From Pseudomonadota bacterium (GTDB taxonomy: Bacteria > Desulfobacterota > Desulfobacteria > Desulfobacterales > JBDRRP01): a stretch of DNA of 39,644 nucleotides. The stretch covers positions 62,001-101,644 of the forward strand of contig JBDRRP010000064.1 of the NCBI GenBank assembly GCA_043825735.1, written 5' to 3'. The notes below the pieces were generated by a model, which did no database searches, was not told the DNA's origin, and saw only the letters and a list, made by a program, of their open reading frames with translations. Both the position numbers and the translations under genes were made by a program. Positions within the stretch are counted from its first letter, which is position 1. Each line of letters opens with the position of its first letter. Positions 1 to 18,900 of this stretch are shown here, piece after piece.

Positions 1-600
1 GGCGTCCAATCCGCCCATGCTGATCCGGTCTACCGATACTATCAGGAGCCCGATGCCAAACGGCGCCGGTTCTCACCGGTCCATGTCAAGCCTAGCACGG
101 CCCAGGCCGCCATGATCGGCAACCCGGTCTCCATGCCCCGGGTCATCCATCTGGCTCAAGAATACGAACGGTTGGCCGGCGGGCGCCGCATGTTTGTCGT
201 TCAGGTGCGCGAGCAGGACATCATGGACTGGCAACTTCGGGCCAACCGCAACGGGCATGTGGCCTGCACCCACGGTGGGGAATGCCTTGCCGGTCTGATC
301 AAAGCCCGGGAAGCCGGGATGATCGATCCGGGCGAATCCGCGATCCTCGATGCCACGGCCCATGCCATCAAGTTTTCAGGCTTTCAAGACATGTATTTCA
401 ACGATGCGATGCCCGACGCTTACGAGGTGGTGCCAAACCCGGCGCTCGTCAACAAACCTGAGCTGGTGCGCCCCACCGACGGGTCACCGATCCCCACGCC
501 CGAAACCCCGCTCGCCGATGCGGCGCTGGAGCACTACGTGACCCAGATTTCCGGTATCATCGCTCAGCGGCTGGCTCTGAGTAAACAGCCGCCGGGGTAG
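1..600 (+). CDS. thrC: Threonine synthase, C-terminal part (5' end outside window)
   Basis: Frame is open from base 1 (GVQSAHADPVYRYY...AQAAMIGNPVSMPRV...ACTHGGECLAGL...DATAHAIKF), matching the PLP-dependent threonine synthase C-terminal half; TAG at 598-600. Confidence 0.85.
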   Translation, partial: GVQSAHADPVYRYYQEPDAKRRRFSPVHVKPSTAQAAMIGNPVSMPRVIHLAQEYERLAGGRRMFVVQVREQDIMDWQLRANRNGHVACTHGGECLAGLIKAREAGMIDPGESAILDATAHAIKFSGFQDMYFNDAMPDAYEVVPNPALVNKPELVRPTDGSPIPTPETPLADAALEHYVTQISGIIAQRLALSKQPPG

Positions 601-704
601 TATTGCGGCCATCGGCAGCGCCCAGAGGCGCTTTGCCAACTTCAGGACCATTCGCTTTTCGATCCCAAGCGAGGGTTCTCAGCAAAAATAAAAGGCCATA
701 TTGG

Positions 705-2609
705 ATGCCTCTTTTGAGTAGACGAAAATGCACAATGGCCGCAGCAGTTGTCGTACTATCGGCTTGCCTGCTGTGGCCGCCGACCGCCCGCACCGCCCTT
801 GTGTATAAAAACTACATCGTCCAGCAGGACAGCGGGATGGACATCCTTTGCGCCCCCTATACGGTGCAGCCGGGCGACTGGGTCATCAAAGTCCTCAAAC
901 TGAGAGGCGAAATCGCGTCCCAGGATTTCCCCTACTTCCTTCAGATCTTCGCCCGCATCAACCCGCACGTCAAAGACGTGAACCGGATTCGCCCGGGCCA
1001 GCAAATCTTTATCCCCTTGCGGGAGATGCCCACGGGCACATACCCGGCTCAGCAAAGCGGTCTGGTGACGATCCCCTTTGTGGATTTATCATCCAAGGCC
1101 ACTGTTTCTCTGGAAGCCGCAGCAGCCTACCGTGTCCGCCCCCGGGACAGCATATCCAAACTGGTGGCGAGCCGGTATGGACGCTATGGCAGCGCCGACT
1201 ATCAAGAAGGCATCAGACAGCTCCAAGCCCTCAATCCCCAAATCAAGGACCTGGATCTCATTTTCGTAGATCAAGTGATTTTTTTACCGACACAGCGGTC
1301 TCGGTCCGCACCCGTCGAAGTGCTGGCCAGCGCACCCGTCACCACCCGCGCCATTCCCAGAACGCCGGCCCCGTTGAAAAAGGATTTTGGTGACGGCCCG
1401 GGAGGCGGATCATCTGACGAAAGATCAGCGCCGTCGGATGTATCGCCCTTGTCTGAGGCCGCCGCCATGATGGAGGCCAGCCTTTTGGACAAGGGCACCT
1501 ATATCTTCCCCGGTGACAACAACCGCGCTGTGCGCATCGATTTATCGAAGACCCCGGTGATTGACCTGCCAGAAGGTCAAAAGATTTTGCTTTCAGGTGA
1601 AAAACCAATTGAAGACGCGGATCTCGCCGCGATCAAAACACAGTGGAAGCACTTTCGCCAGCTTAAGCTGCCGGCCAACGCATCCTTGGAACAGGTCCTC
1701 GACGCCGTGCTGGATACCCCCGAGAAGGGCGCTCCGCGTCAGAAAACCGTCCAGCTGAGCACCGGCGGAGCGACATTCAGTATTCGCCCCAAATGGCTGC
1801 TGAACGGCCCGGATACGGAAATGAACCCCATCCGGCACATCTGCATCACCCCCATTGATACCGGCGACCAACGGACCCCGTCGGGGGTGGTGCGATTTTT
1901 AGCCGGTCATGGCATCCGCATTCGAGAGGTCATCCGTGGCGGGACCAGCACCGCCGGCCGGACACCGGCTCAGCCACAACACTCCCGGCAGTCGACAACC
2001 CTTCAGATTACGGCCAGCGGGCACCGCCAATTGGTGGCCGACCTGCTCGAGGCCCTGGGCTATACCTTCACCCGCAATGTGGCCATTTCCTTTCCCTATG
2101 CCGGGATCGAAGTCAAGGCCATGTCCAATCTGGTGACGACCCGCAGCGGCAATCCCCTGTTTATCGATTTCGGCGACCTCTTTGGCGATGCCTTCAGCGC
2201 CATCACCAACACCGGGTTCAATATCATTCAGGTAACAGCTCAGGACGATCTTCTAACGGTCATCGACACGTTGATGACCGCTCTTGACGAACCGGTATCC
2301 GCGCAGCCGACGTTTCTCGCCGCCAACCGGCCCGAGCAATACAATACCCGCATCGGCATCCCGGGAAAACTGATGGGCGGCGATACCGGTGAGCGCACAC
2401 TGATCACGACAACGCCTATTGCCCTCCCCGTCAGCCAACTACTCAATGATCAGCAAGTGCGCATCATCATCGTCCAGACCCCCGACCGGCAAACACCGGC
2501 GGCAACGCAGCAGGATCTGTCGACACGTCCTGACGCCACGGCCATTGTCGGTGCGGCGGGACCGCCCCCCGACGACATCGTGCTTCACAAGGAGGTTAGC
2601 CAACCATGA
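705..2609 (+). CDS. Exported LysM peptidoglycan-binding domain protein (two LysM-like repeats)
   Basis: Hydrophobic N-terminal segment (AAAVVVLSACLLW); LysM-like motifs YTVQPGDW...INPHVKDVNRIRPGQQIFIP and YRVRPRDS...LNPQIKDLDLIFVDQVIFLP. Start uncertain (TTG603, ATG705 or ATG735). Stop overlaps the next ATG (ATGA). Confidence 0.8.
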   Translation: MPLLSRRKCTMAAAVVVLSACLLWPPTARTALVYKNYIVQQDSGMDILCAPYTVQPGDWVIKVLKLRGEIASQDFPYFLQIFARINPHVKDVNRIRPGQQIFIPLREMPTGTYPAQQSGLVTIPFVDLSSKATVSLEAAAAYRVRPRDSISKLVASRYGRYGSADYQEGIRQLQALNPQIKDLDLIFVDQVIFLPTQRSRSAPVEVLASAPVTTRAIPRTPAPLKKDFGDGPGGGSSDERSAPSDVSPLSEAAAMMEASLLDKGTYIFPGDNNRAVRIDLSKTPVIDLPEGQKILLSGEKPIEDADLAAIKTQWKHFRQLKLPANASLEQVLDAVLDTPEKGAPRQKTVQLSTGGATFSIRPKWLLNGPDTEMNPIRHICITPIDTGDQRTPSGVVRFLAGHGIRIREVIRGGTSTAGRTPAQPQHSRQSTTLQITASGHRQLVADLLEALGYTFTRNVAISFPYAGIEVKAMSNLVTTRSGNPLFIDFGDLFGDAFSAITNTGFNIIQVTAQDDLLTVIDTLMTALDEPVSAQPTFLAANRPEQYNTRIGIPGKLMGGDTGERTLITTTPIALPVSQLLNDQQVRIIIVQTPDRQTPAATQQDLSTRPDATAIVGAAGPPPDDIVLHKEVSQP

Positions 2610-3382
2610 AGCGTATCGTGTTCGCCCTGCTCTGCTGCGGCATCCTGACAGTGGCAACCGCCTGTAAAAGCACCACAGAAAACCAGATCAAACAGGCGGA
2701 AGCGCATCGAAAACTGGGAGAAGCGCATTTAATCGATGACAACTACATCGCCGCTTTGCGTGAATTCACGGCTTCCCAAAAGTTGCTTCCAACCGACCCG
2801 ATCGTCCACAACGACATCGGTCTGGTCTATCTGAGACGCGCCATGCTGCCCGATGCCCTGGCCGCCTTCCAAAAGGCGCTCTCCCTGAAGCCGGACTACG
2901 GCGACGCCCTTCTCAACTTGTCGGTAACCTATATGAGAATGGAACAGTGGGATAAAGCCATCAAACACCTGAAGACGCTCGAAGCCGACCTGCTTTACTC
3001 GGATTATCAAAATACGCAACTCAATCTGGGATATGCGTACTATATGAAAGGGGACTATGCCAACGCATCGATACACTACGCCAAGACCATCCAATATTAC
3101 GAGGACGGTTTTCGCAAAGATGTTACCTATGTCATGGCGTTGCTTGGGCAGGCGCGGGTTGCACTGAAAACCGGCAAAGCCGGAGCGGCCCTGTCCCTTA
3201 TTGACACCGCACTGGCTGAAGCGCCGCAGGCGGCGGAATTATATTTCTACAAGGGGGCCGCGCTCGAGATTCTTGGAAACAGCACGGCCGCACGAAACGC
3301 CTATATCAAAGTTATCGAACTCGCGCCCCAGGGAGACCTTTCACAAAAAGCCATCGATGCCTTAAGGGGACTGGCCAATTAG
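2606..3382 (+). CDS. TPR lipoprotein, PilF/PilW/Tgl pilotin-like
   Basis: SD AAGGAGG at 2589-2595; signal peptide with lipobox-like ATAC (Cys20); tandem TPR repeats; adjacent to pilQ. Confidence 0.75.
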   Translation: MKRIVFALLCCGILTVATACKSTTENQIKQAEAHRKLGEAHLIDDNYIAALREFTASQKLLPTDPIVHNDIGLVYLRRAMLPDALAAFQKALSLKPDYGDALLNLSVTYMRMEQWDKAIKHLKTLEADLLYSDYQNTQLNLGYAYYMKGDYANASIHYAKTIQYYEDGFRKDVTYVMALLGQARVALKTGKAGAALSLIDTALAEAPQAAELYFYKGAALEILGNSTAARNAYIKVIELAPQGDLSQKAIDALRGLAN

Positions 3383-3534
3383 GGTGGTCATAACCATGCA
3401 AAACCATCCTATTGGCAGAACGGTATTGCTCCTAATGGATTGACCCGTCTTTTCCAGGCGCACCGGCCGTCCCTTAGAGCACTTGTCAGAATAATGTTCC
3501 GTTTCATCGCCAAGATCCTACACAGATAAAGCAT

Positions 3535-3565
3535 AAAAAACGGCGTCTCCCCGAGGGAGACGCCG
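3535..3565 (-). terminator. Rho-independent terminator of the pilMNOPQ operon
   Basis: 11-bp stem CGGCGTCTCCC/GGGAGACGCCG (3541-3565) followed on the minus strand by T6 (A-run 3535-3540), ~45 nt after the pilQ stop. Confidence 0.85.
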
Positions 3566-3608
3566 CTGGTTTTCCAGTGAAAACATCCTTTATCACAGAA
3601 GTGATTCT

Positions 3609-6380
3609 TTATTTGGGAAGCTTGACAATCTGTGGATTAAGGAAGATGAGAAGCTCGTTTTTATCATTCGTCGTTGATTCCGTCTTGAATAGCCACCCCA
3701 GCAGCGGAATGTCCTTCAACCCCGGGACCCCGGTTTCCCCTTTTTTATCTTGTGTCACGGTGATACCGGCAATGACGATGGTGTCTCCGTCGTTCACGAT
3801 CAGCTCCGTGTTGGCCTCGTTGATGGTAAACTTGAAATTCGATCCGACCTGGTCCCCAAGGTCATTTTTGGTCACGCTGATCTTCATTGAAATCCGACCG
3901 TCCTTGGTCACATGAGGCGTCACCGTCAGTTCCAAAACGATGTCTTTGAACTCAGTGGTGGAGTTGCCGTCGGCGTCCAGTTTATTGATGGGATAACTGG
4001 TACCCTGCTTGATGGTGGCGGGCTTATTGTCCAGTGTCAGAATCTTCGGCGCCGAAATGGTCTTTGTCTCACCCTGCGACTCATAGAGATTCAGCTTGGC
4101 GGCAATGGTCAGCGGCGTGCCGGCCACCTTAATGTAGTCCAGTGCAAATGTCGCAGCCTTACTGCCGCCCTGCAAACCAGAGGTGGCAAAGTTCATGCCG
4201 ACGTCCCCGGACATCTTGCCCGGCAGCGACAGGCCACCGGTCGATGGTGTGGTTCCAGCGAACTCGGTGCCGAACTCTCGCGCAAAGTTGGTGGTGGCCT
4301 GTACCACCCGCGCTTCGATAAGCACCTGGTCGGTAACCCGGTCGAGTTCCTTAATCATTTCACCGACGGCGTTTTGGACCTCTCGGGTGTCCACAACGAT
4401 GAGCTGGTTGGTGGGCGTATAGACACTGACCTTACCACGGTCAGGTGTGATAATTGTTTGCACATGGGGCAGAATATCTCGCGAAGCATCCGCGTAGTTG
4501 ATCGGATAATACCCCGTTTCTAACGGCGCCAGTGCCCGTTCATTCGCCTTGGCGTCGATGGCCTGTTTCAATGCCTCGCTTCGGAGCTGCTCCTCCTGCT
4601 TGATGGTGGCCAGAGTAGCGACACGGACGATGTCCCCCTCGTAGACCATTCCCAATTGGTTCATCCGCAGTACGAGATCAAGGACCTGATCCCAGGGTAC
4701 CGGCTTGTCTAGAGATAGAGTAACCTTGCCGGCGACGTCTTTGTCAATGGCGTAGTTCTTCCCGCTGATTTCCCGAAGGATTCGAAATACGTTCTTGACA
4801 TCGGTTTCGTAGAAATCGAGGGCTATTTTCTCCCCGGTATACTTTCTGTCGGTAGTACGGTAATAGGTGCGCTTTTCATCATACGCGCCGGTATCTTCCG
4901 GAACCGTCACGTTTGCTAATGCGGGATCGGGTGAAGAACCCTTGGTTGCCATTTCGGGCGCAGCAGCTGCTGCCGGCACGGATGCTGCCATGGCCGCCTG
5001 ATCGATGGCCTTCTGCCAGTCGGGCAATCCGGCCTGTTCCAGCGGCCTTGGGGGCACGCTGGATGGATCGAAGTGAATCATGATCAAATCGTCGAGCTGT
5101 TCAATAGTATACGGTACCGCCTCGCGCAGTTCGATGGTGATCAACGACTTATCTTTCATTGTCGCGGTCTGGATCGGAGAAATCCTGTCGATGGCACTCT
5201 CGAAACGGGTTGTAATGAGCGGCCGCTGACGATACCCGGGAAGATTTGTGTCAAAAAGGGTCAGCAGCAGTTTCTGGTCGCCATCGGTATTCATGACATA
5301 CTTCACCGATTGCGTGGTTCCAACGATGATGGTCGATTTCCCATCTTTTTCGCTGCTAAAATCGATACGGTTCACCCAGGCCGGCTCACCACTACGCTTT
5401 GGTGCCGGTGCAGCGGCAGCGGCCGAAACCTGTTCCACTGGCGGGACAGTAACCGTTACCTGCGCTACCGGGGCCATGCGTTCACTTTTCGCACCGACAG
5501 TAACCACCAATCCGTCTTCAACAGTGTTGGCCTGAAACTGATCCAAAAAGGCATCTTCGGTGTCAATCACAACGCGGACCTTGTCAGGATATTTGAAGTG
5601 CCGGATCTTCTTCACCGCCTCGGTATTGACTGGAACGATCTGCTCACCTTTATAGGGGCTGTCAATGCCATATATGTCAAAAACGATTCTTGCAGGATTC
5701 TTGATGGTAAACGCATCGTATTCACGGATGGCGCCGTTGGCGGAAAATTTAATTGAAACCTCATCATCATGGGCAATGGCGCTGGCCCCGGCAAAAGCGG
5801 TGGCTGGCATCAACACCGCACCGGCCGGTGCGAGCACCTCGGATTGCACAGGCGCCAAGGCCTCTTGTGCGCTCTGCGCTTCGATGGCCGTGTCTTGCGA
5901 CGCCTCGGGGGCGATCAACGCCGGTTTATCGAATACGATTTTCAGTTCATTTCCCTGCCGGCTCACCGCGTATTCAGTATCGACCTTGAGTTTGATTTCG
6001 ATCCGAGATGTCGTTGAGGAACCAACGATTTCAGAAGCCTTGATCGATTCAATTAGGGTACTGTCCACTGGCATGCTGGCGCTGATGTTCTGCAATCGGG
6101 TGGACGGGAGATAAAGTACCACTGCCGGTGGATAAGGCTGTTTTACCGACGTATAGGTAAGGGCCTGGTCCCCGGAAATCAGAACGCTGACAAACGTATC
6201 ATCTTCCGTCGTCACGATATCGGACACCACACGCAATTGTGACTGCGATGCGAGGGCCACCGCCGCTGTCGGCTTGGCAGCCTGTTGCGGCGTCGCACAG
6301 CCGGTCAACAAAAAAACGAGCACAAGCGCCAGAGAGATGACGACGTGCCGCCCACCATACTTAACCATTATTGGCCGCAT
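3609..6380 (-). CDS. pilQ: Type IV pilus secretin PilQ with N-terminal AMIN domains
   Basis: YTGEKIALDFYETDVKNVFRIL, VPWDQVLDLVL and C-terminal secretin motif GVPGLKDIPLLGWLFK; AMIN-like repeats (e.g. NPARIVFDI); last gene of pilMNOPQ. ATG6380 preferred over TTG6395. Confidence 0.95.
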   Translation of the reverse strand: MRPIMVKYGGRHVVISLALVLVFLLTGCATPQQAAKPTAAVALASQSQLRVVSDIVTTEDDTFVSVLISGDQALTYTSVKQPYPPAVVLYLPSTRLQNISASMPVDSTLIESIKASEIVGSSTTSRIEIKLKVDTEYAVSRQGNELKIVFDKPALIAPEASQDTAIEAQSAQEALAPVQSEVLAPAGAVLMPATAFAGASAIAHDDEVSIKFSANGAIREYDAFTIKNPARIVFDIYGIDSPYKGEQIVPVNTEAVKKIRHFKYPDKVRVVIDTEDAFLDQFQANTVEDGLVVTVGAKSERMAPVAQVTVTVPPVEQVSAAAAAPAPKRSGEPAWVNRIDFSSEKDGKSTIIVGTTQSVKYVMNTDGDQKLLLTLFDTNLPGYRQRPLITTRFESAIDRISPIQTATMKDKSLITIELREAVPYTIEQLDDLIMIHFDPSSVPPRPLEQAGLPDWQKAIDQAAMAASVPAAAAAPEMATKGSSPDPALANVTVPEDTGAYDEKRTYYRTTDRKYTGEKIALDFYETDVKNVFRILREISGKNYAIDKDVAGKVTLSLDKPVPWDQVLDLVLRMNQLGMVYEGDIVRVATLATIKQEEQLRSEALKQAIDAKANERALAPLETGYYPINYADASRDILPHVQTIITPDRGKVSVYTPTNQLIVVDTREVQNAVGEMIKELDRVTDQVLIEARVVQATTNFAREFGTEFAGTTPSTGGLSLPGKMSGDVGMNFATSGLQGGSKAATFALDYIKVAGTPLTIAAKLNLYESQGETKTISAPKILTLDNKPATIKQGTSYPINKLDADGNSTTEFKDIVLELTVTPHVTKDGRISMKISVTKNDLGDQVGSNFKFTINEANTELIVNDGDTIVIAGITVTQDKKGETGVPGLKDIPLLGWLFKTESTTNDKNELLIFLNPQIVKLPK

Positions 6381-9533: not shown

Positions 9534-9734
9534 TTAATGGTTTCCAAAAATCTTGTCTTTCTCCGTCAACTTCAGGCCAAGGGCGAGCAGGATCTTCCGC
9601 TTTGTCTCCATCCGGCACGGTAGTCCGCTTTCAACTCGGGTAATCGTTATCGGAGACACCTTCGCCCGCCTGGCCAGTTCCGCCTTGCTGACCAGCATTG
9701 ATTCTCTCACTTTTTTCAAGGAATTTTTGTTCAT
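9534..9734 (-). CDS. Small XRE/Cro-type helix-turn-helix protein
   Basis: 66 aa, LKKVRESMLVSKAELARRAKVSPITITRVESG is an HTH_3-like pattern; 12 bp upstream of pilM. Confidence 0.85.
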   Translation of the reverse strand: MNKNSLKKVRESMLVSKAELARRAKVSPITITRVESGLPCRMETKRKILLALGLKLTEKDKIFGNH

Positions 9735-10132: not shown

Positions 10133-11566
10133 ATGACAGCCAAGCCCTCGGATCCAGTCGCCGAGGAAAAAACAAAATCCTTCCGGTTGGTCAAGTACTT
10201 TTCATTTTCCAGCCTGATCGTCATTTTCATTGGTACGCTTGTCCTTTCGATGCTCAACACCCACTGGGCGCGGCGAACGCAACTCAAGCAAAGTGAAGAA
10301 TTTGCCAGGCTGCTCATCGAAAATCTCAATCATCAGGTTTTTCTTCAATTTATCCTTCCAGTAGTCCTTAAATATGGGAAGGTTCAACTCAGAGATCCGG
10401 AACAGTATGACCGGATGGATACCGTGGTGCGGGCAACGCTGTACAGTTTCAATGTCGAGCAGGTCAGCATCTACGATCAAAATCATACCATCGCCTATAG
10501 CTTTGACAAATCGCTCCTCGGCACGCGGCGGCTCGCCGCGAAAAGCTACCTCGAAGCCCTGCGAGGGGTTCAGAGTTCAAGGGTCATCCAGATTGGCTCC
10601 AGCTGGGAGATATTCTTTGGCATCCCCAAAAAAAGCCGTATGGTCAGCATCGCCCCGCTAAGGGCCGAGGAGAAGCTGGCCCGACCCTCTGGACCCATTC
10701 TCGGCATCGTTGAAATTACCCAGGACCTGACCCCTCAATATCGTGAAATTTTTCAGTTTCAGATTCTTATCATCCTCAATGTCGCTATTGTCATGATGGG
10801 ATTGTTCGTCGTATTGCTGCTGGTCGTCAAACGCGGTGAATCGATCATCGAAAAGCGCGCTCTTGAACGCATGCGGCTCAAAGAGCGCCTTGCAAAGGCC
10901 GAGCACTTATCTTCCTTGGGAGAAATGGTGGCTGGTGTATCGCATGAAATCAGAAACCCATTGGGAATTATTCTGAGCTCAGCCAATCTTTTGCGCAAAC
11001 AGATGCCCCCGGCAGACCGCCTGAGCCATATCTCGAATATCATTTTGGAAGAGGCGGGCCGCCTCAATGGCATCATCACGGACTTTCTCAATTTCGCCCG
11101 CCCTCAGCAACCCGACCTTCAGAGTTGCAGCGTCGAATCCGTTCTGGAAAAAAATATCAATTTCCTGAAGACTCAGATCGAAGGGAAAGGTTATGACATC
11201 CACTATCTCGCCAAGGCACACCTGCCGGATATCATCGCCGATGCAAATATGCTCTACCAAGCATTTCTCAACATCATGCTTAATGCCATTCAGGCGATGC
11301 CCGGCGGCGGTCCAATCCACATTGATCTGTTTGAGAAAGATGATCACGTCCACGTGACATTTACAGACAGTGGCCCCGGCATTCCCGAAACACTCATCGA
11401 AAAAGTCTGGGATCCGTTTTTTACAACCAAGGACGGCGGCACCGGACTGGGGTTGGGGATTGTAAGAAAAATAATACTAGCCCACAGCGGACAGATTGAT
11501 ATTTCAAACGCCCCCGGTGGCGGCACTCATATCGCCATCCGCCTTCCAATCCGACCCGGAGATTAA
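10133..11566 (+). CDS. Membrane sensor histidine kinase (NtrB/PilS-like)
   Basis: Two TM segments around a periplasmic domain; H-box SHEIRNPL, N-box NIMLNAIQAM, DSGPGI, PFFTTK and GTGLGL. Start ATG10133 or TTG10094. Confidence 0.92.
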   Translation: MTAKPSDPVAEEKTKSFRLVKYFSFSSLIVIFIGTLVLSMLNTHWARRTQLKQSEEFARLLIENLNHQVFLQFILPVVLKYGKVQLRDPEQYDRMDTVVRATLYSFNVEQVSIYDQNHTIAYSFDKSLLGTRRLAAKSYLEALRGVQSSRVIQIGSSWEIFFGIPKKSRMVSIAPLRAEEKLARPSGPILGIVEITQDLTPQYREIFQFQILIILNVAIVMMGLFVVLLLVVKRGESIIEKRALERMRLKERLAKAEHLSSLGEMVAGVSHEIRNPLGIILSSANLLRKQMPPADRLSHISNIILEEAGRLNGIITDFLNFARPQQPDLQSCSVESVLEKNINFLKTQIEGKGYDIHYLAKAHLPDIIADANMLYQAFLNIMLNAIQAMPGGGPIHIDLFEKDDHVHVTFTDSGPGIPETLIEKVWDPFFTTKDGGTGLGLGIVRKIILAHSGQIDISNAPGGGTHIAIRLPIRPGD

Positions 11567-11568
11567 CA

Positions 11569-12957
11569 ATGGACACGGTACTCATTGTTGACGACGAAAA
11601 AAACTACCCCCCTATTCTCAGCGCAGTCCTTGAAGAAGACGGCTTCGGCACGCTTTCCGCCTTCAGCGCACGGGAAGCGCTTGAACTCATAGAAAACTCC
11701 GATGTCGATCTCGTGCTTGCCGATATGAAGATGCCTGAAATGGACGGCATTGCTTTGCTGGAAAACATTAAACAAAGAAACCCGGATCTTCCGGTCATTA
11801 TGATGACGGCGCACGGAACCGTTGAAAAGGCAGTGGAGGCCATGCAGAAGGGGGCCCATAATTTTATTTTGAAGCCTTTCGACAATGACCAACTGGTCAT
11901 TTATGCCAAAAAAGCGATTTCGCTATACCGGGTCGTCAAGGACAACCAGCGGCTGCGAAGTGCTGTGGAGCACCAATACAATTTCGGCAACATCATCGGC
12001 AAGAGCATGGCCATGAAAGACGTCTTTGAGACGATTCGCAAAGTGGCACCGGCTCAGGCCACCGTACTGATCGAAGGCGACAGCGGCACGGGAAAGGAGC
12101 TGGTTGCCAAATCCATTCATTTTAACAGCCAGCGCCGGCATCGACCGTTTATTGCTGTTAACTGCTCGGCACTGGCCGAATCCCTGCTGGAAAGCGAACT
12201 CTTCGGACACGAAAAAGGGGCCTTCACTGGAGCCGCCGGTACAAAAAAGGGGCGTTTCGAAATCGCCGACGGTGGCACACTGTTCCTGGATGAAATAGGG
12301 GAGCTGAGTCAAAGCCTTCAGGTAAAACTACTTAGGGTATTGCAGGAAAAAACCTTTGAGCGAGTTGGGGGACTGAAACCGATATCGGTGGATATCCGCG
12401 TCATCGTCGCCACCAACAAACGATTGCGGGAGGAGGTCGCTGCCGGCCGGTTCAGGGAGGATTTGTTTTATCGCCTCAATGTCGTGCACATTACTTTGCC
12501 CCGCCTGCAGGAACGACCGGAGGATATCAGACTGCTGGTTGATCACTTCATCCCAAAATACCAATCGGAAAGACGGGGGCAGCCGCCTATCACGGGCCTT
12601 GATCCGGAAGTGGAACGCCTTTTTCTGGACTACAACTGGCCGGGAAATGTGAGGGAACTGGAAAACGTTATCGAACGGGCCCTAATTTTGTGCGAAGGCG
12701 GCGACATCCGGGCCTCCGATCTACCCAGAGATTTCCGAGACCATGTCTATAACATACTCCACCTGGATGGTATCCCTGCCGACGCCAAGCTCTACGACAC
12801 ACTGGAGATGGTGGAAAAAAAGATGATCGAAAGGGCCTTGAAACTGTCGGAAGGGATTCAGGTGCATGCTGCCGAAATGCTGGGAATCGGAAAGAGCGGA
12901 TTGAATCAGAAGCTCAAACGGCACCATATTTCATCGGACCAGAAATCAAAAATATAA
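11569..12957 (+). CDS. Sigma54-dependent response regulator (REC-AAA+-Fis HTH, NtrC family)
   Basis: Receiver (LIVDDE, LADMKMP, KPF), Walker A GDSGTGKE, intact [33 protein letters not shown]-terminal HTH; starts 2 bp after the kinase stop. Confidence 0.95.
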
Positions 12958-13009
12958 AATAATATCCATCATCTCAGATGGTTATAATTGATGTCTCTTT
13001 TCGTGAACA

Positions 13010-13109
13010 GGCGGTTCAAAATTATGAACATCCCCATAGGGAGGGGAAAAACCAGTTATATCAGGTATCTTATGCTGCCCGCCGAAAAGGGCGGTTTAAA
13101 ATTATGAAC
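13010..13109. promoter_or_regulatory. Paired upstream activator-like sites
   Basis: GGCGGTTCAAAATTATGAAC (13010-13029) and GGCGGTTTAAAATTATGAAC (13090-13109), 19/20 identical, 80 bp apart; palindromic core GTTCA-N6-TGAAC. Confidence 0.6.
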
Positions 13110-13250
13110 CCATGGCGCTATTTGTAGACACCGTCACCCGGCACCATCGACGTGCCATGGCGCACCGCCCCGCCTCCGACCAATTGTAACCCGTTGTAAT
13201 TAATCCAATAACAGCCATCGCCGCATCCAATCGAAACACCGCGAAGCGGT

Positions 13251-13266
13251 TGGCATGGAACCTGCT
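13251..13266 (+). promoter_or_regulatory. Sigma54 (-24/-12) promoter
   Basis: TGGCATGGAACCTGCT, with GG at 13252-53 and GC at 13264-65 in exact GG-N10-GC spacing; close to consensus TGGCACG-N4-TTGCW. Confidence 0.7.
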
Positions 13267-13276
13267 TAAAGAATAA

Positions 13277-13351
13277 GCAAGCCTAATGACTTCTTCATCT
13301 GTTTCCTCCTTAATGGCTGACCGGTAACCCGCCGGCCAGCCATTTCCTTTT
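13277..13351 (+). ncRNA. Candidate sigma54-dependent small RNA (~75 nt) with anti-Shine-Dalgarno seed
   Basis: Bounded by the -24/-12 promoter and a hairpin with U-rich tail; no credible plus-strand CDS; contains CUUCUUCAUCUGUUUCCUCCUU. Confidence 0.6.
13312..13351 (+). terminator. Intrinsic terminator-like hairpin
   Basis: AATGGCTG-a-CCGG [TAACCCG] CCGG-c-CAGCCATT followed by TCCTTTT on the plus strand. Confidence 0.6.
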
Positions 13352-13389
13352 GAAAAGGCCCCGAAACAAAACGGCATACCGTTGCCCTC

Positions 13390-14085
13390 TCATCCCGCCT
13401 TTGTTTTTGCTGTGATGAGCTCGACATACTGAGAATCGGGATACTTTTCCGACAAAGACCGAAAAGCGTCATCCCTGCGCGCGGTATTGCCGGTGGCATT
13501 AAAAACCAGTCCCATCTGGAAAAATGCGGCATCGGCCATTCCGGCACCCGTTCCGTCGGCAATCTGCTGGAGCGCCGTAACGGCTTGATCGTATTGCTTA
13601 AGGGCAATATGCGCCTGGGCCACGCTCTCGAGAATCCGGTAATGAAAAAATGAGGTGGCGCCAAAGTATCCTAGGGTTTCCCGGTACAATGAAATGGCCT
13701 CGGCGAAGTTGCCTGCGGCAAGCTTGGCATCCGCATAGAACAACCGCCCCAGATGCCCAGCCGATTGACTGCCGTATCGCCCCAGCAGATCCGCCATGGC
13801 TGTTTCAATGCCGGTTAAGGCCTGGACCGGCGACTGTCCATCGGCCAGGGCTTTCTCATACTGACTGACAACATCTTGAACCCCCAGAGAAGCGGCATCC
13901 TCCCAGCGCGTGTTCAGGTACCGGTAGGTCGCCAGTCCGACAATAACAGCGAAAAAGACACCCACCGTCACAGACAGAAGTTTTCGGTGCGTTCTGAAGA
14001 ATGAAATCGTCTTTCCCGAAAACGTAATGAACTCATCGGGCTCCTTGAGCAATTGCTTGCGTGTAATCTTGTATTTCCCCATCAT
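13390..14085 (-). CDS. Membrane-anchored TPR protein (YfgM-like)
   Basis: N-terminal RKQLLKEPDEF, single TM helix, TPR-like helices, C-terminal YPDS. Confidence 0.75.
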   Translation of the reverse strand: MMGKYKITRKQLLKEPDEFITFSGKTISFFRTHRKLLSVTVGVFFAVIVGLATYRYLNTRWEDAASLGVQDVVSQYEKALADGQSPVQALTGIETAMADLLGRYGSQSAGHLGRLFYADAKLAAGNFAEAISLYRETLGYFGATSFFHYRILESVAQAHIALKQYDQAVTALQQIADGTGAGMADAAFFQMGLVFNATGNTARRDDAFRSLSEKYPDSQYVELITAKTKAG

Positions 14086-17952: not shown

Positions 17953-18900
17953 TTACCGGATGTTTTCTACGGAAATGTTCTCGGCCTCATCGACCCGCAG
18001 CGAAATATGAGCGCCTTTAATAACCAGTTCCAGGGGGTCTCTGAGGGGGGCGTATTTTTCGACGACCACTTCCACCCCTTTCAGAAATCCCATTTCCAAA
18101 AGGCGCCGCCGAAGGGCGCTGTGCCCCCCGACCCGCGCGATGGTGGCGCGCTGGCCTTCTTCCAGGAGGCTCATGGGCACGCAGGGCAGCGTCTCGCAAA
18201 CCCGGCTCTCGTCGTGGCCGCCATCCACTTGAGGCGCCACAACGATCTTTCGGGAAAGCCCGCGCCCCAGGGCATAGCGCTTTCCGGCCACGGCCACAAC
18301 AACCTGCCCCTCGCCCATATTGGTGATGATATCGAGGACGTCACCCACCCGCAGGCCCATGGCCATCAACCGCATCCGTGTACCCGTCCCGCCGGTGATC
18401 TCCATTATCGTCACACGCTCTCCAGGCCGGGTGACGATAAGGGGCAAGCGCTGCACTTGCTCCTTTCGGCAGATATCGCAAATGCCGTAGAGCTCCATCC
18501 GGTGCTGTAGCAGATGAAAGCCGTAGGCCGCTGCAATGTTTTCCTGCAGCGACTCCAGATCGTCTTCTGTAAACTCGACGATCCGGCCGCACTTGGTGCA
18601 GATCATGTGATCGTGGTGCTGCCCCAGGTGGCGGTGCTCGTAGCGGGCGTCCCCGTTTCCGAATCGATTTTCGTAGGCGAACCCGTATCGGCACATCAGC
18701 TGCATCGTATCACTGACAAACACCTCCGGAAAATTGCGGCCGGCCGTTTCAAGGGCAGCCATCACATCGGAGATGGTCACATGACCTTCTATCTGGAGAA
18801 ATACATCTAGAATCGCGTAGCGATCTTCGAAGCGATCGATATTTTCCTGCAGAAACAGCTCTCGGAACTGCTGCTTTTCCTTGGAATGAATTTGTCGCAT
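17953..18900 (-). CDS. Fur-family metalloregulator fused to two FeoA domains
   Basis: Fur motifs HHDHMICTKCG and HRMELYGICDIC, then RLMAMGLRVGD and RRRLLEMGFLKG...APLRDPLE...ISLRVDEA (two FeoA domains); 7 bp upstream of feoB. Confidence 0.88.
   Translation of the reverse strand: MRQIHSKEKQQFRELFLQENIDRFEDRYAILDVFLQIEGHVTISDVMAALETAGRNFPEVFVSDTMQLMCRYGFAYENRFGNGDARYEHRHLGQHHDHMICTKCGRIVEFTEDDLESLQENIAAAYGFHLLQHRMELYGICDICRKEQVQRLPLIVTRPGERVTIMEITGGTGTRMRLMAMGLRVGDVLDIITNMGEGQVVVAVAGKRYALGRGLSRKIVVAPQVDGGHDESRVCETLPCVPMSLLEEGQRATIARVGGHSALRRRLLEMGFLKGVEVVVEKYAPLRDPLELVIKGAHISLRVDEAENISVENIR

Follow-up and report, generated by a model that had tools for sequence, protein, structure and literature searches.

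The window analysed here is a stretch of 39,644 nucleotides from a Desulfobacterales source genome, G000 (G000:C64:62001-101644), in which a sensor kinase gene and an NtrC-type regulator gene are followed by a predicted small RNA (sRNA) of about 75 nt at 13277..13351 on the + strand. Plain positions are those of the window, and pairs such as C27:8127 give contig and position in G000. The sRNA almost certainly represents a real, uncatalogued family, it very probably pairs with the leaders of outer-membrane porin mRNAs, and it is probably a MicF-like, Hfq-independent porin repressor under two-component and sigma54 control. Its pyrimidine tract is the reverse complement of a Shine-Dalgarno sequence, a spacer, AUG and Lys-Lys codons, and the co-evolution of RNA and porin leader across genomes is, as far as sequences can tell, strong evidence that the porin is its target.

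Co-evolution was quantified as a residual, defined as the pairing energy of the sRNA and porin of the same genome against the value predicted from row and column means. The residual was -8.76 kcal/mol in 39 genomes, negative in 36 of them and never equalled in 10,000 permutations, and was still -8.23 after removal of the five porins that had been located by an sRNA-derived pattern. Other genes of the same genomes were used as controls and gave -0.5 (range -1.7 to +0.5, n = 23), against -9.17 for the porins there. A second barrel family had a residual of -4.84 with 16/17 negative, and both barrel families taken together reached -8.39 kcal/mol (48 genomes, 45 negative, 0/10,000 permutations), although the permutation p-values overstate the significance because kin genomes are not fully independent.

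The predicted pairing region at 13281..13316 (+) runs through anti-codons 2-5, the anti-AUG at 13296-98, an anti-spacer, the anti-Shine-Dalgarno at 13305-09 and the bases with which the terminator arm begins, and the median length of the aligned sRNA-porin stretch was 29 nt. Idiosyncrasies of single porin starts were repeated in the RNA of the same genome. A doubled AUG in G036 was mirrored by a doubled CAU, an ATG-ATA start in G059 and the loss of the -1 G in G054 had their counterparts, as had the unusual spacers GGACAC (G009) and GAGAGTA (G197) and those of G050 and G023, and starts of MRK versus MKK type (G201, G169) were likewise matched. The base next to the stem agreed with the porin leader in 13/13 cases, eight as C/G and five as U/A. 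This agreement suggests an opening of the stem base during pairing, which the co-fold showed as well. In G028 (L052 and L374) a shortened RNA without the anti-AUG is predicted to pair with the porin Shine-Dalgarno and codons 4-6, the start codon being looped out.

Two targets are predicted in G000, a 516-aa porin at C27:8127 (+), with a Porin_4 match above cut-off, and the divergent 361-aa barrel at C27:3822 (-). The 516-aa protein is modelled as an 18-strand barrel with best fold matches to AlgE and Campylobacter MOMP. When 22,096 candidate starts were scanned for duplexes with a wide window including the stem bases, its gene came first. The ACAG that precedes the AUG occurs in only 9 of the 1,447 strong Shine-Dalgarno genes of G000, and in 61 genomes the anti-seed pattern gave 20 non-self matches, 11 of which were porins. 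The two predicted target genes are adjacent and divergently oriented (L056, G000:C27:295-9677), and in front of each stands a gene for an FG-GAP repeat protein, in one case with a weak CsgG-like N-terminal match; G013, G020 and G003 have such a divergent pair as well. In G003 the regulator, the sRNA and both porin genes lie inside 10 kb (L024, L062, L452; G003:C1:618983-628587), and the larger porin there has one in-frame TGA. In three genomes (L271, L275, L284) the seed pattern is also matched by starts of an exported SH3/AMIN protein family, whose members are possible secondary targets.

Several observations weigh against this assignment. The first rank of the 516-aa porin was obtained solely with the wide window including stem bases. 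Among the 5,267 starts of G000 called by an in-house gene caller, some of them misplaced, the free seed placed the porin at rank 13, the 361-aa barrel at rank 7 and Pal at rank 2, and none of 36 shuffles that retained the anti-Shine-Dalgarno equalled this for either barrel; with the stem base included the two barrels ranked 2 and 4, and with folding costs the porin ranked 15 and the 361-aa barrel fell outside the top 25. Since the porin ranks between 1 and 15 and is not uniquely first, the single genome is suggestive and not decisive. Disjoint pairs of near relatives preferred the cognate partner in 12/16 (p 0.08; several pairs from unresolved forks), and the wobble test was mixed, with U-G in 41/680 vs C-A in 32/357, and G-U in 16/64 vs A-C in 9/276. 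No cognate preference was seen in G020, G033 and G056, no A3 porin was found in six distant RNA-bearing genomes, namely G099, G068 and four of family f91, and the well-assembled G004, G021 and G026 have the regulator and no RNA match. In four shallow RNA runs no contig fell on the sRNA, at a depth of about 3 and with two near-identical contigs on the whole stretch; these belong to one sediment metatranscriptome that shared 7% of words, and fall in the neighbouring TPR gene.

The RNA itself was traced with a covariance model, R1, built from 21 sequences. It matched 49/61 genomes of the order at E <=0.01, among them 28/40 outside the training set, mostly once per genome; in G000 it matched once, and no second copy was found. 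In a sample of the phylum, R1 matched 8/146 genomes outside the order, all other Desulfobacterota. A strict pattern recovered at least 120 loci, 118 of which are titled Desulfobacterales or deltaproteobacterial and two of which are bins labelled otherwise. Cultured carriers include Desulfosarcina alkanivorans PL12 and Desulfatitalea alkaliphila. At distant regulator loci, 20 of 31 matches were examined and a diverged module stood directly behind the gene in seven; in the other 13 there was no module within 600 nt, some carrying the RNA elsewhere (G091) and others having been searched no further. The alignment A2 is biased at the seed columns by the search pattern, and seed conservation was therefore judged from the model matches. 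Rfam gave no match at gathering thresholds, the best E being 4.3 in the gap behind the regulator and 0.1 over a homologue, far below gathering. The preliminary description of the locus had proposed that the output of the system is an unannotated sigma54-driven sRNA of no recognised family, to be checked by alignment behind orthologous regulators. Such alignment revealed a conserved promoter, a CCUCC seed and a covarying terminator, and the proposal thus stands on each of these counts, the absence from Rfam included. The bins labelled Cyanobacteriota and Pseudomonadota that carry the RNA (L151, L230) are probably misbinned Desulfobacterales contigs. Duplicated sRNA genes were observed at L094 (G051), L334-L336 (G046), L103/L333 (G048), L026/L332 (G023) and L167/L168, and the second copies of G023 and G048 carry an altered seed that fits the porin better than does the first.

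The predicted intrinsic terminator (13312..13351, +) comprises a 13-bp stem, 13312-24 with 13332-44, followed by a U tail. The hairpin 13312-13344 had a z of -4.1 and was matched by none of 200 shuffles, the U tail is interrupted, and a simple terminator scan made no call here. Across homologues the stem was 94.8% paired, with 12/13 pairs changed on both sides and 0/500 shuffles as good, and in slid controls the pairing dropped to 17-48%. Median RNA length was 74 nt over 64 homologues. The +1 near 13277 was placed by promoter spacing, so that both ends of the RNA in G000 are predictions and its transcription is presumed. A caveat had been raised earlier that an A-C mismatch in the stem is a G-U pair on the minus strand, so that the hairpin might serve the mRNA of the convergent gene. 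In 91 distinct sequences, read on the plus strand, the stem held 67 G-U cells against 4 A-C cells; the hairpin is for that reason taken as a plus-strand RNA structure, and the caveat is set aside.

Upstream of the RNA a sigma54 -24/-12 promoter lies at 13251..13266 (+; GG 13252-53, GC 13264-65), and its GG and TGC are invariant in alignment A1. A promoter-like match in L041 falls within the TPR gene and was excluded from counts. Taken alone the -24/-12 match is at chance level, one being found in the window where 0.88 were expected (63/100 shuffles); with the promoter at chance and the terminator uncalled by the scan, the case was therefore built on comparison. G000 possesses rpoN. Two putative upstream activator sites, 16-bp palindrome cores at 13014..13029, with the consensus GTTCA-N6-TGAAC, and at 13094..13109, are embedded in 20-mers (13010-29 and 13090-109) that differ by one base, the cores being 80 bp apart. 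This is the only sigma54-type promoter of G000 with two such palindromes upstream, so the RNA looks like the sole output of the regulator; the search for a wider regulon in G000 added just two isolated palindromes and a further promoter with one weak site. An IHF-like site at 13187..13199 (-) has two mismatches to the IHF consensus and is positionally conserved, recurring some 65 bp upstream of the promoter. In 79 loci, 25 matches shared its place and strand, and overall there were 118 matches vs 62.6 in shuffled sequence.

Of 40 relatives, which with few exceptions represent different families of the order, 35 had an orthologue of the regulator, at 58-88% identity. With promoter, tract and hairpin alike, the RNA lay directly 3' of the regulator in 18/33 family-spread relatives having sequence there; in the remaining relatives the RNA gene was sited elsewhere and accompanied by its own promoter and enhancer. 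At the species level the regulator adjoined the RNA in just 8/73 loci. Palindromes of type A were kept in 71 of 80 species-level loci and a type B variant, GTTTCC-N4-GGAAAC, was found in five, with a two-site spacing of 75-80 bp in 41/47 cases. A regulator recognition helix ending xxKK accompanied type B in 4/4 adjacent cases, and the helices seen with type A were non-KK in 14/14; a further four adjacent type B loci, one of which duplicates the record of G025, also showed xxKK. On a quick tree of the regulator, from which the row of G163 was left out, the type B lineages did not form one clade, and two of them had a type A sister (support 90-92). The regulator at 11569..12957 would thus in all likelihood activate the sRNA. 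The earlier suggestion that the activator drives the promoter next to it gains from this covariation of enhancer and helix, but adjacency as such is not the rule. In G010 (L030, contig C1) decayed enhancer palindromes persist behind the regulator, the RNA gene now being about 270 kb away.

The sensor histidine kinase gene (10133..11566, +) has Pfam HisKA and HATPase_c domains, and two membrane helices flank a periplasmic Cache/PAS-like domain. An AlphaFold model of residues 1-262 had a pLDDT of 82, with the WalK extracellular domain and the DctB and CitA sensor domains as closest folds, and the ESM Atlas gave sCache_3_2 as a lead, on 20% of one cluster. The regulator gene (11569..12957, +), coding for a sigma54 enhancer-binding protein, has Pfam receiver, Sigma54_activat and HTH_8 domains. 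It is followed by a 432-bp gap (12958-13389) with the palindrome pair, IHF-like site, promoter, pyrimidine-rich tract, and hairpin with U tail, and by a convergent TPR_21 (YfgM-like) gene identified by Pfam (13390-14085, -); these features were all recovered where the preliminary description had placed them. In keeping with its view that the gap lacks a credible coding sequence, the sole open reading frame (ORF) of >=90 aa entirely within the gap (13102-13377, -, 91 aa), the only one searched, had no Pfam match. A 132-aa ORF enters the gap from the side of the TPR gene (13266-13664, -). On the other flank lies pilMNOPQ, read leftwards from 9521 (-). A 66-aa XRE-type HTH gene (9534-9734, -; HTH_3 above cut-off), which falls below the 90-aa ORF threshold, immediately precedes pilM and is oriented divergently from the kinase gene. 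Farther along, immediately upstream of feoB, one gene (17953-18900, -) encodes a Fur domain together with two FeoA domains in a single protein, a metal regulator joined to a transport accessory protein.

MicF-type sRNAs are porin repressors that pair at the mRNA initiation region, and in Vibrio the LuxO-Qrr system provides an sRNA driven by sigma54 and an enhancer-binding protein that acts at ribosome-binding sites. The RNA described here resembles MicF, MicC, MicA and OmrAB as a short, trans-encoded RNA with an intrinsic terminator that is predicted, in its 5' part, to pair across the place on a porin mRNA where translation starts. By computation, an independent short RNA gene with terminator and trans complementarity to a porin initiation region were both found, while Hfq dependence and homology to a catalogued family were not. 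With LuxO-Qrr it shares the type of promoter control and, by prediction, the action at ribosome-binding sites, but it differs in the missing Rfam match, the missing Hfq, the membrane kinase in the operon, and porin rather than LuxR/HapR targets. A CsrB/RsmZ-type protein sponge, which has repeated GGA motifs in loops, was rejected, the 5' parts of 64 homologues holding only 3 GGA. Another porin-repressing sRNA is NcS25 of Burkholderia (PMC10117139). The present RNA stands apart from NcS25 and the MicF group in several ways: it has no counterpart in Rfam, the 61 genomes gave no Hfq, its alignment with the target spans about 29 nt and takes in Shine-Dalgarno, AUG and codons, its sigma54 promoter has a dedicated enhancer-binding protein, and its predicted targets are 18-strand, AlgE/MOMP-like barrels.

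In its architecture the locus resembles Myxococcus PxrK-PxrR-Pxr (RF01812), in which a kinase and an NtrC-type regulator are followed, about 260-320 bp downstream, by an sRNA under a sigma54 promoter with enhancer; the host, a deltaproteobacterium, lacks Hfq (PMC5684412). The same order of kinase, NtrC-type regulator and sRNA, with sigma54-type promoter and enhancer elements, was found here. Pxr has 108 nt in three stem-loops and its targets are given as unknown in that paper (PMC5684412); R1 does not match a Pxr locus, and the three-stem-loop sequence was not seen in the present RNA. Orthology to PxrR was rejected, the identity of 39.6% being no closer than that of paralogues and the protein falling outside the orthologue clade (support 97, quick tree). 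The PxrK frame (L351), read by eye, shows no membrane-flanked sensor like that of the present kinase. The loop of Pxr stem-loop 1 (L351:4005-4060) is a C-rich, anti-Shine-Dalgarno-like tract.

Likeness was also found to D. vulgaris DVU0679-Dv_sRNA2 and DVU0653-ncRNA, in which a sigma54 response regulator has a non-coding RNA (ncRNA) target just downstream, of unknown function in these papers (PMC3333781, PMC4641369). No DVU0679 orthologues are reported there in Desulfobacterales. Orthology to DVU0653 or DVU0679 was rejected on binding motifs and DNA-binding domains, which differ from those here; it is this regulator motif and helix, not RNA sequence, that set the present RNA apart from those units. 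The helix of another D. vulgaris regulator, DVU3305 (SKSLLQYK), is very similar to TKSLLQYK in distant orthologues here, and its sites are GTT...AAC palindromes that come in pairs, for the most part with a spacing of 76-81 bp (PMC4641369). This helix and its paired sites support the view that the palindromes here are regulator sites. DVU3305 differs in its GAFSGA motif and GTTGC-type sites and regulates a lon/usp stress operon, with no RNA reported; the likeness drawn here is one of helix and sites. By the tests run, the system is like MicF and NcS25 in its working, like Pxr and the Desulfovibrio enhancer-binding protein-ncRNA units in its build, and a member of none of them. The targets of the sigma54-driven RNAs of Desulfovibrio and Myxococcus are unknown in the cited papers.

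Hfq (PF17209) was found in 0/61 genomes while controls were detected, and ProQ was not found in G000, the one genome searched for it. A median of 29 aligned nt would fit pairing without a chaperone.

The RNA might instead act broadly on ribosome-binding sites in the manner of GcvB or RybB, damping many strongly translated exported Met-Lys-Lys proteins (binding proteins, Pal, OmpA-like lipoproteins), with porins merely the most constrained among them. Genes with signal peptides, called by a crude rule, make up 19 of the top 50 predicted targets, where 36 shuffles gave no more than 14 and the background is 14.6%, 8/20 non-self pattern matches were other exported or membrane proteins, and the high rank of Pal in G000 goes with a small cognate effect of -1.7 (33/10,000 permutations). 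That residual was too weak for Pal to be accepted as a co-evolving target, its mean cognate energy was -19.7 vs -33.1 for the barrels, and MKK-type non-porin starts had no cognate effect (-0.32, n = 7) where the porins of the same genomes had -10.6. As a replacement for porin repression this broad action is unlikely; as a secondary regulon it is compatible with it. Less likely still, the RNA could protect or activate the porin mRNA by shielding or storage, or repeated rounds of copying from the porin gene, and not RNA pairing, could maintain the match in the DNA itself. The wobble test did not show U-G to be clearly in excess over C-A, and mobility is a trait of the RNA gene, which some genomes carry in duplicate and which often lies 3-75 kb from porin genes on the same contig. 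The matches, however, contain bulges, loop-outs and G-U pairs (G028, G053, G201) and their identity ends at the pairing region. Pairing of an sRNA over Shine-Dalgarno and AUG blocks initiation, and because the predicted pairing covers both, the RNA was judged repressive and not protective.

Control of type IV pili of the PilSR type, exerted through the RNA, is very improbable. Its attraction lies in pilM, a conserved neighbour that is divergently upstream in 17/35 loci, and in a second pilRS pair within the pil cluster of Myxococcus (PMC6060248). No enhancer precedes pilM, however, and the starts of pilMNOPQ and pilin-like genes ranked 307-5211 of 5,267 as targets. A separate sigma54 regulator at C62:64787, with a 128-aa pilin-like gene just behind it at C62:63060 (-), is the probable true pilR-pilA unit of G000. 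For these reasons, and with a two-helix kinase of Cache/PAS-like type, the pilSR-pilA analogy drawn earlier for the locus was given up. That the conserved element is a minus-strand micro-ORF (Shine-Dalgarno and Met-Lys-Lys), or a mere terminator of the convergent TPR gene, has been largely refuted and is hardly credible. It is true that the minus strand here reads Shine-Dalgarno, ATG and 10 codons and that the hairpin of G000 folds better on that strand. Among homologues, by contrast, the minus-strand ORF ranges from 6 to 71 codons, the anti-AUG triplet is missing in 15/64, and the convergent TPR gene follows the RNA in just 5/76 loci; the G-U bias, the promoter and the enhancer are all directed plus-wards.

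For porin repression by the sRNA the following course is proposed. The periplasmic Cache-type kinase and the NtrC-type regulator would respond to a signal, presumably envelope-related, and the regulator would act through the two upstream palindromes and IHF-assisted looping on the sigma54 promoter, from which a trans-acting antisense RNA of about 75 nt would be made. Its weakly structured 5' part of some 35 nt would pair over about 29 nt with the Shine-Dalgarno, spacer, AUG and codons 2-5 in the mRNAs of two major outer-membrane beta-barrel porin families, often also engaging the lowest bases of the stem in its own terminator. Loading of the 30S subunit would then be blocked and porin synthesis lowered, without Hfq. 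Somewhat better than even is the further view that this is an ancient Desulfobacterota circuit, a single-output two-component system whose chaperone-free RNA mirrors the porin ribosome-loading site base for base, tracks every change across families and opens the base of its own terminator.

A literature search yielded no Desulfobacterales sRNA with a named target and no description of the present RNA, subscription papers and theses being outside its reach. The system offers a complete candidate circuit of kinase, activator, enhancer, promoter, RNA and target, available in cultured strains, and an unusually clean natural data set on compensatory evolution of sRNA and target. Porin control by antisense RNA would then have arisen again, in an Hfq-less lineage, leaving a natural record of co-evolution in three layers (helix with enhancer, stem, and sRNA with target). 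If the proposal is true, the RNA would act, in the dominant marine sulfate reducers, as the master switch for permeability of the outer membrane, and it would bear on the limits of outer-membrane uptake in sediment sulfate reducers, hydrocarbon degraders and symbionts.

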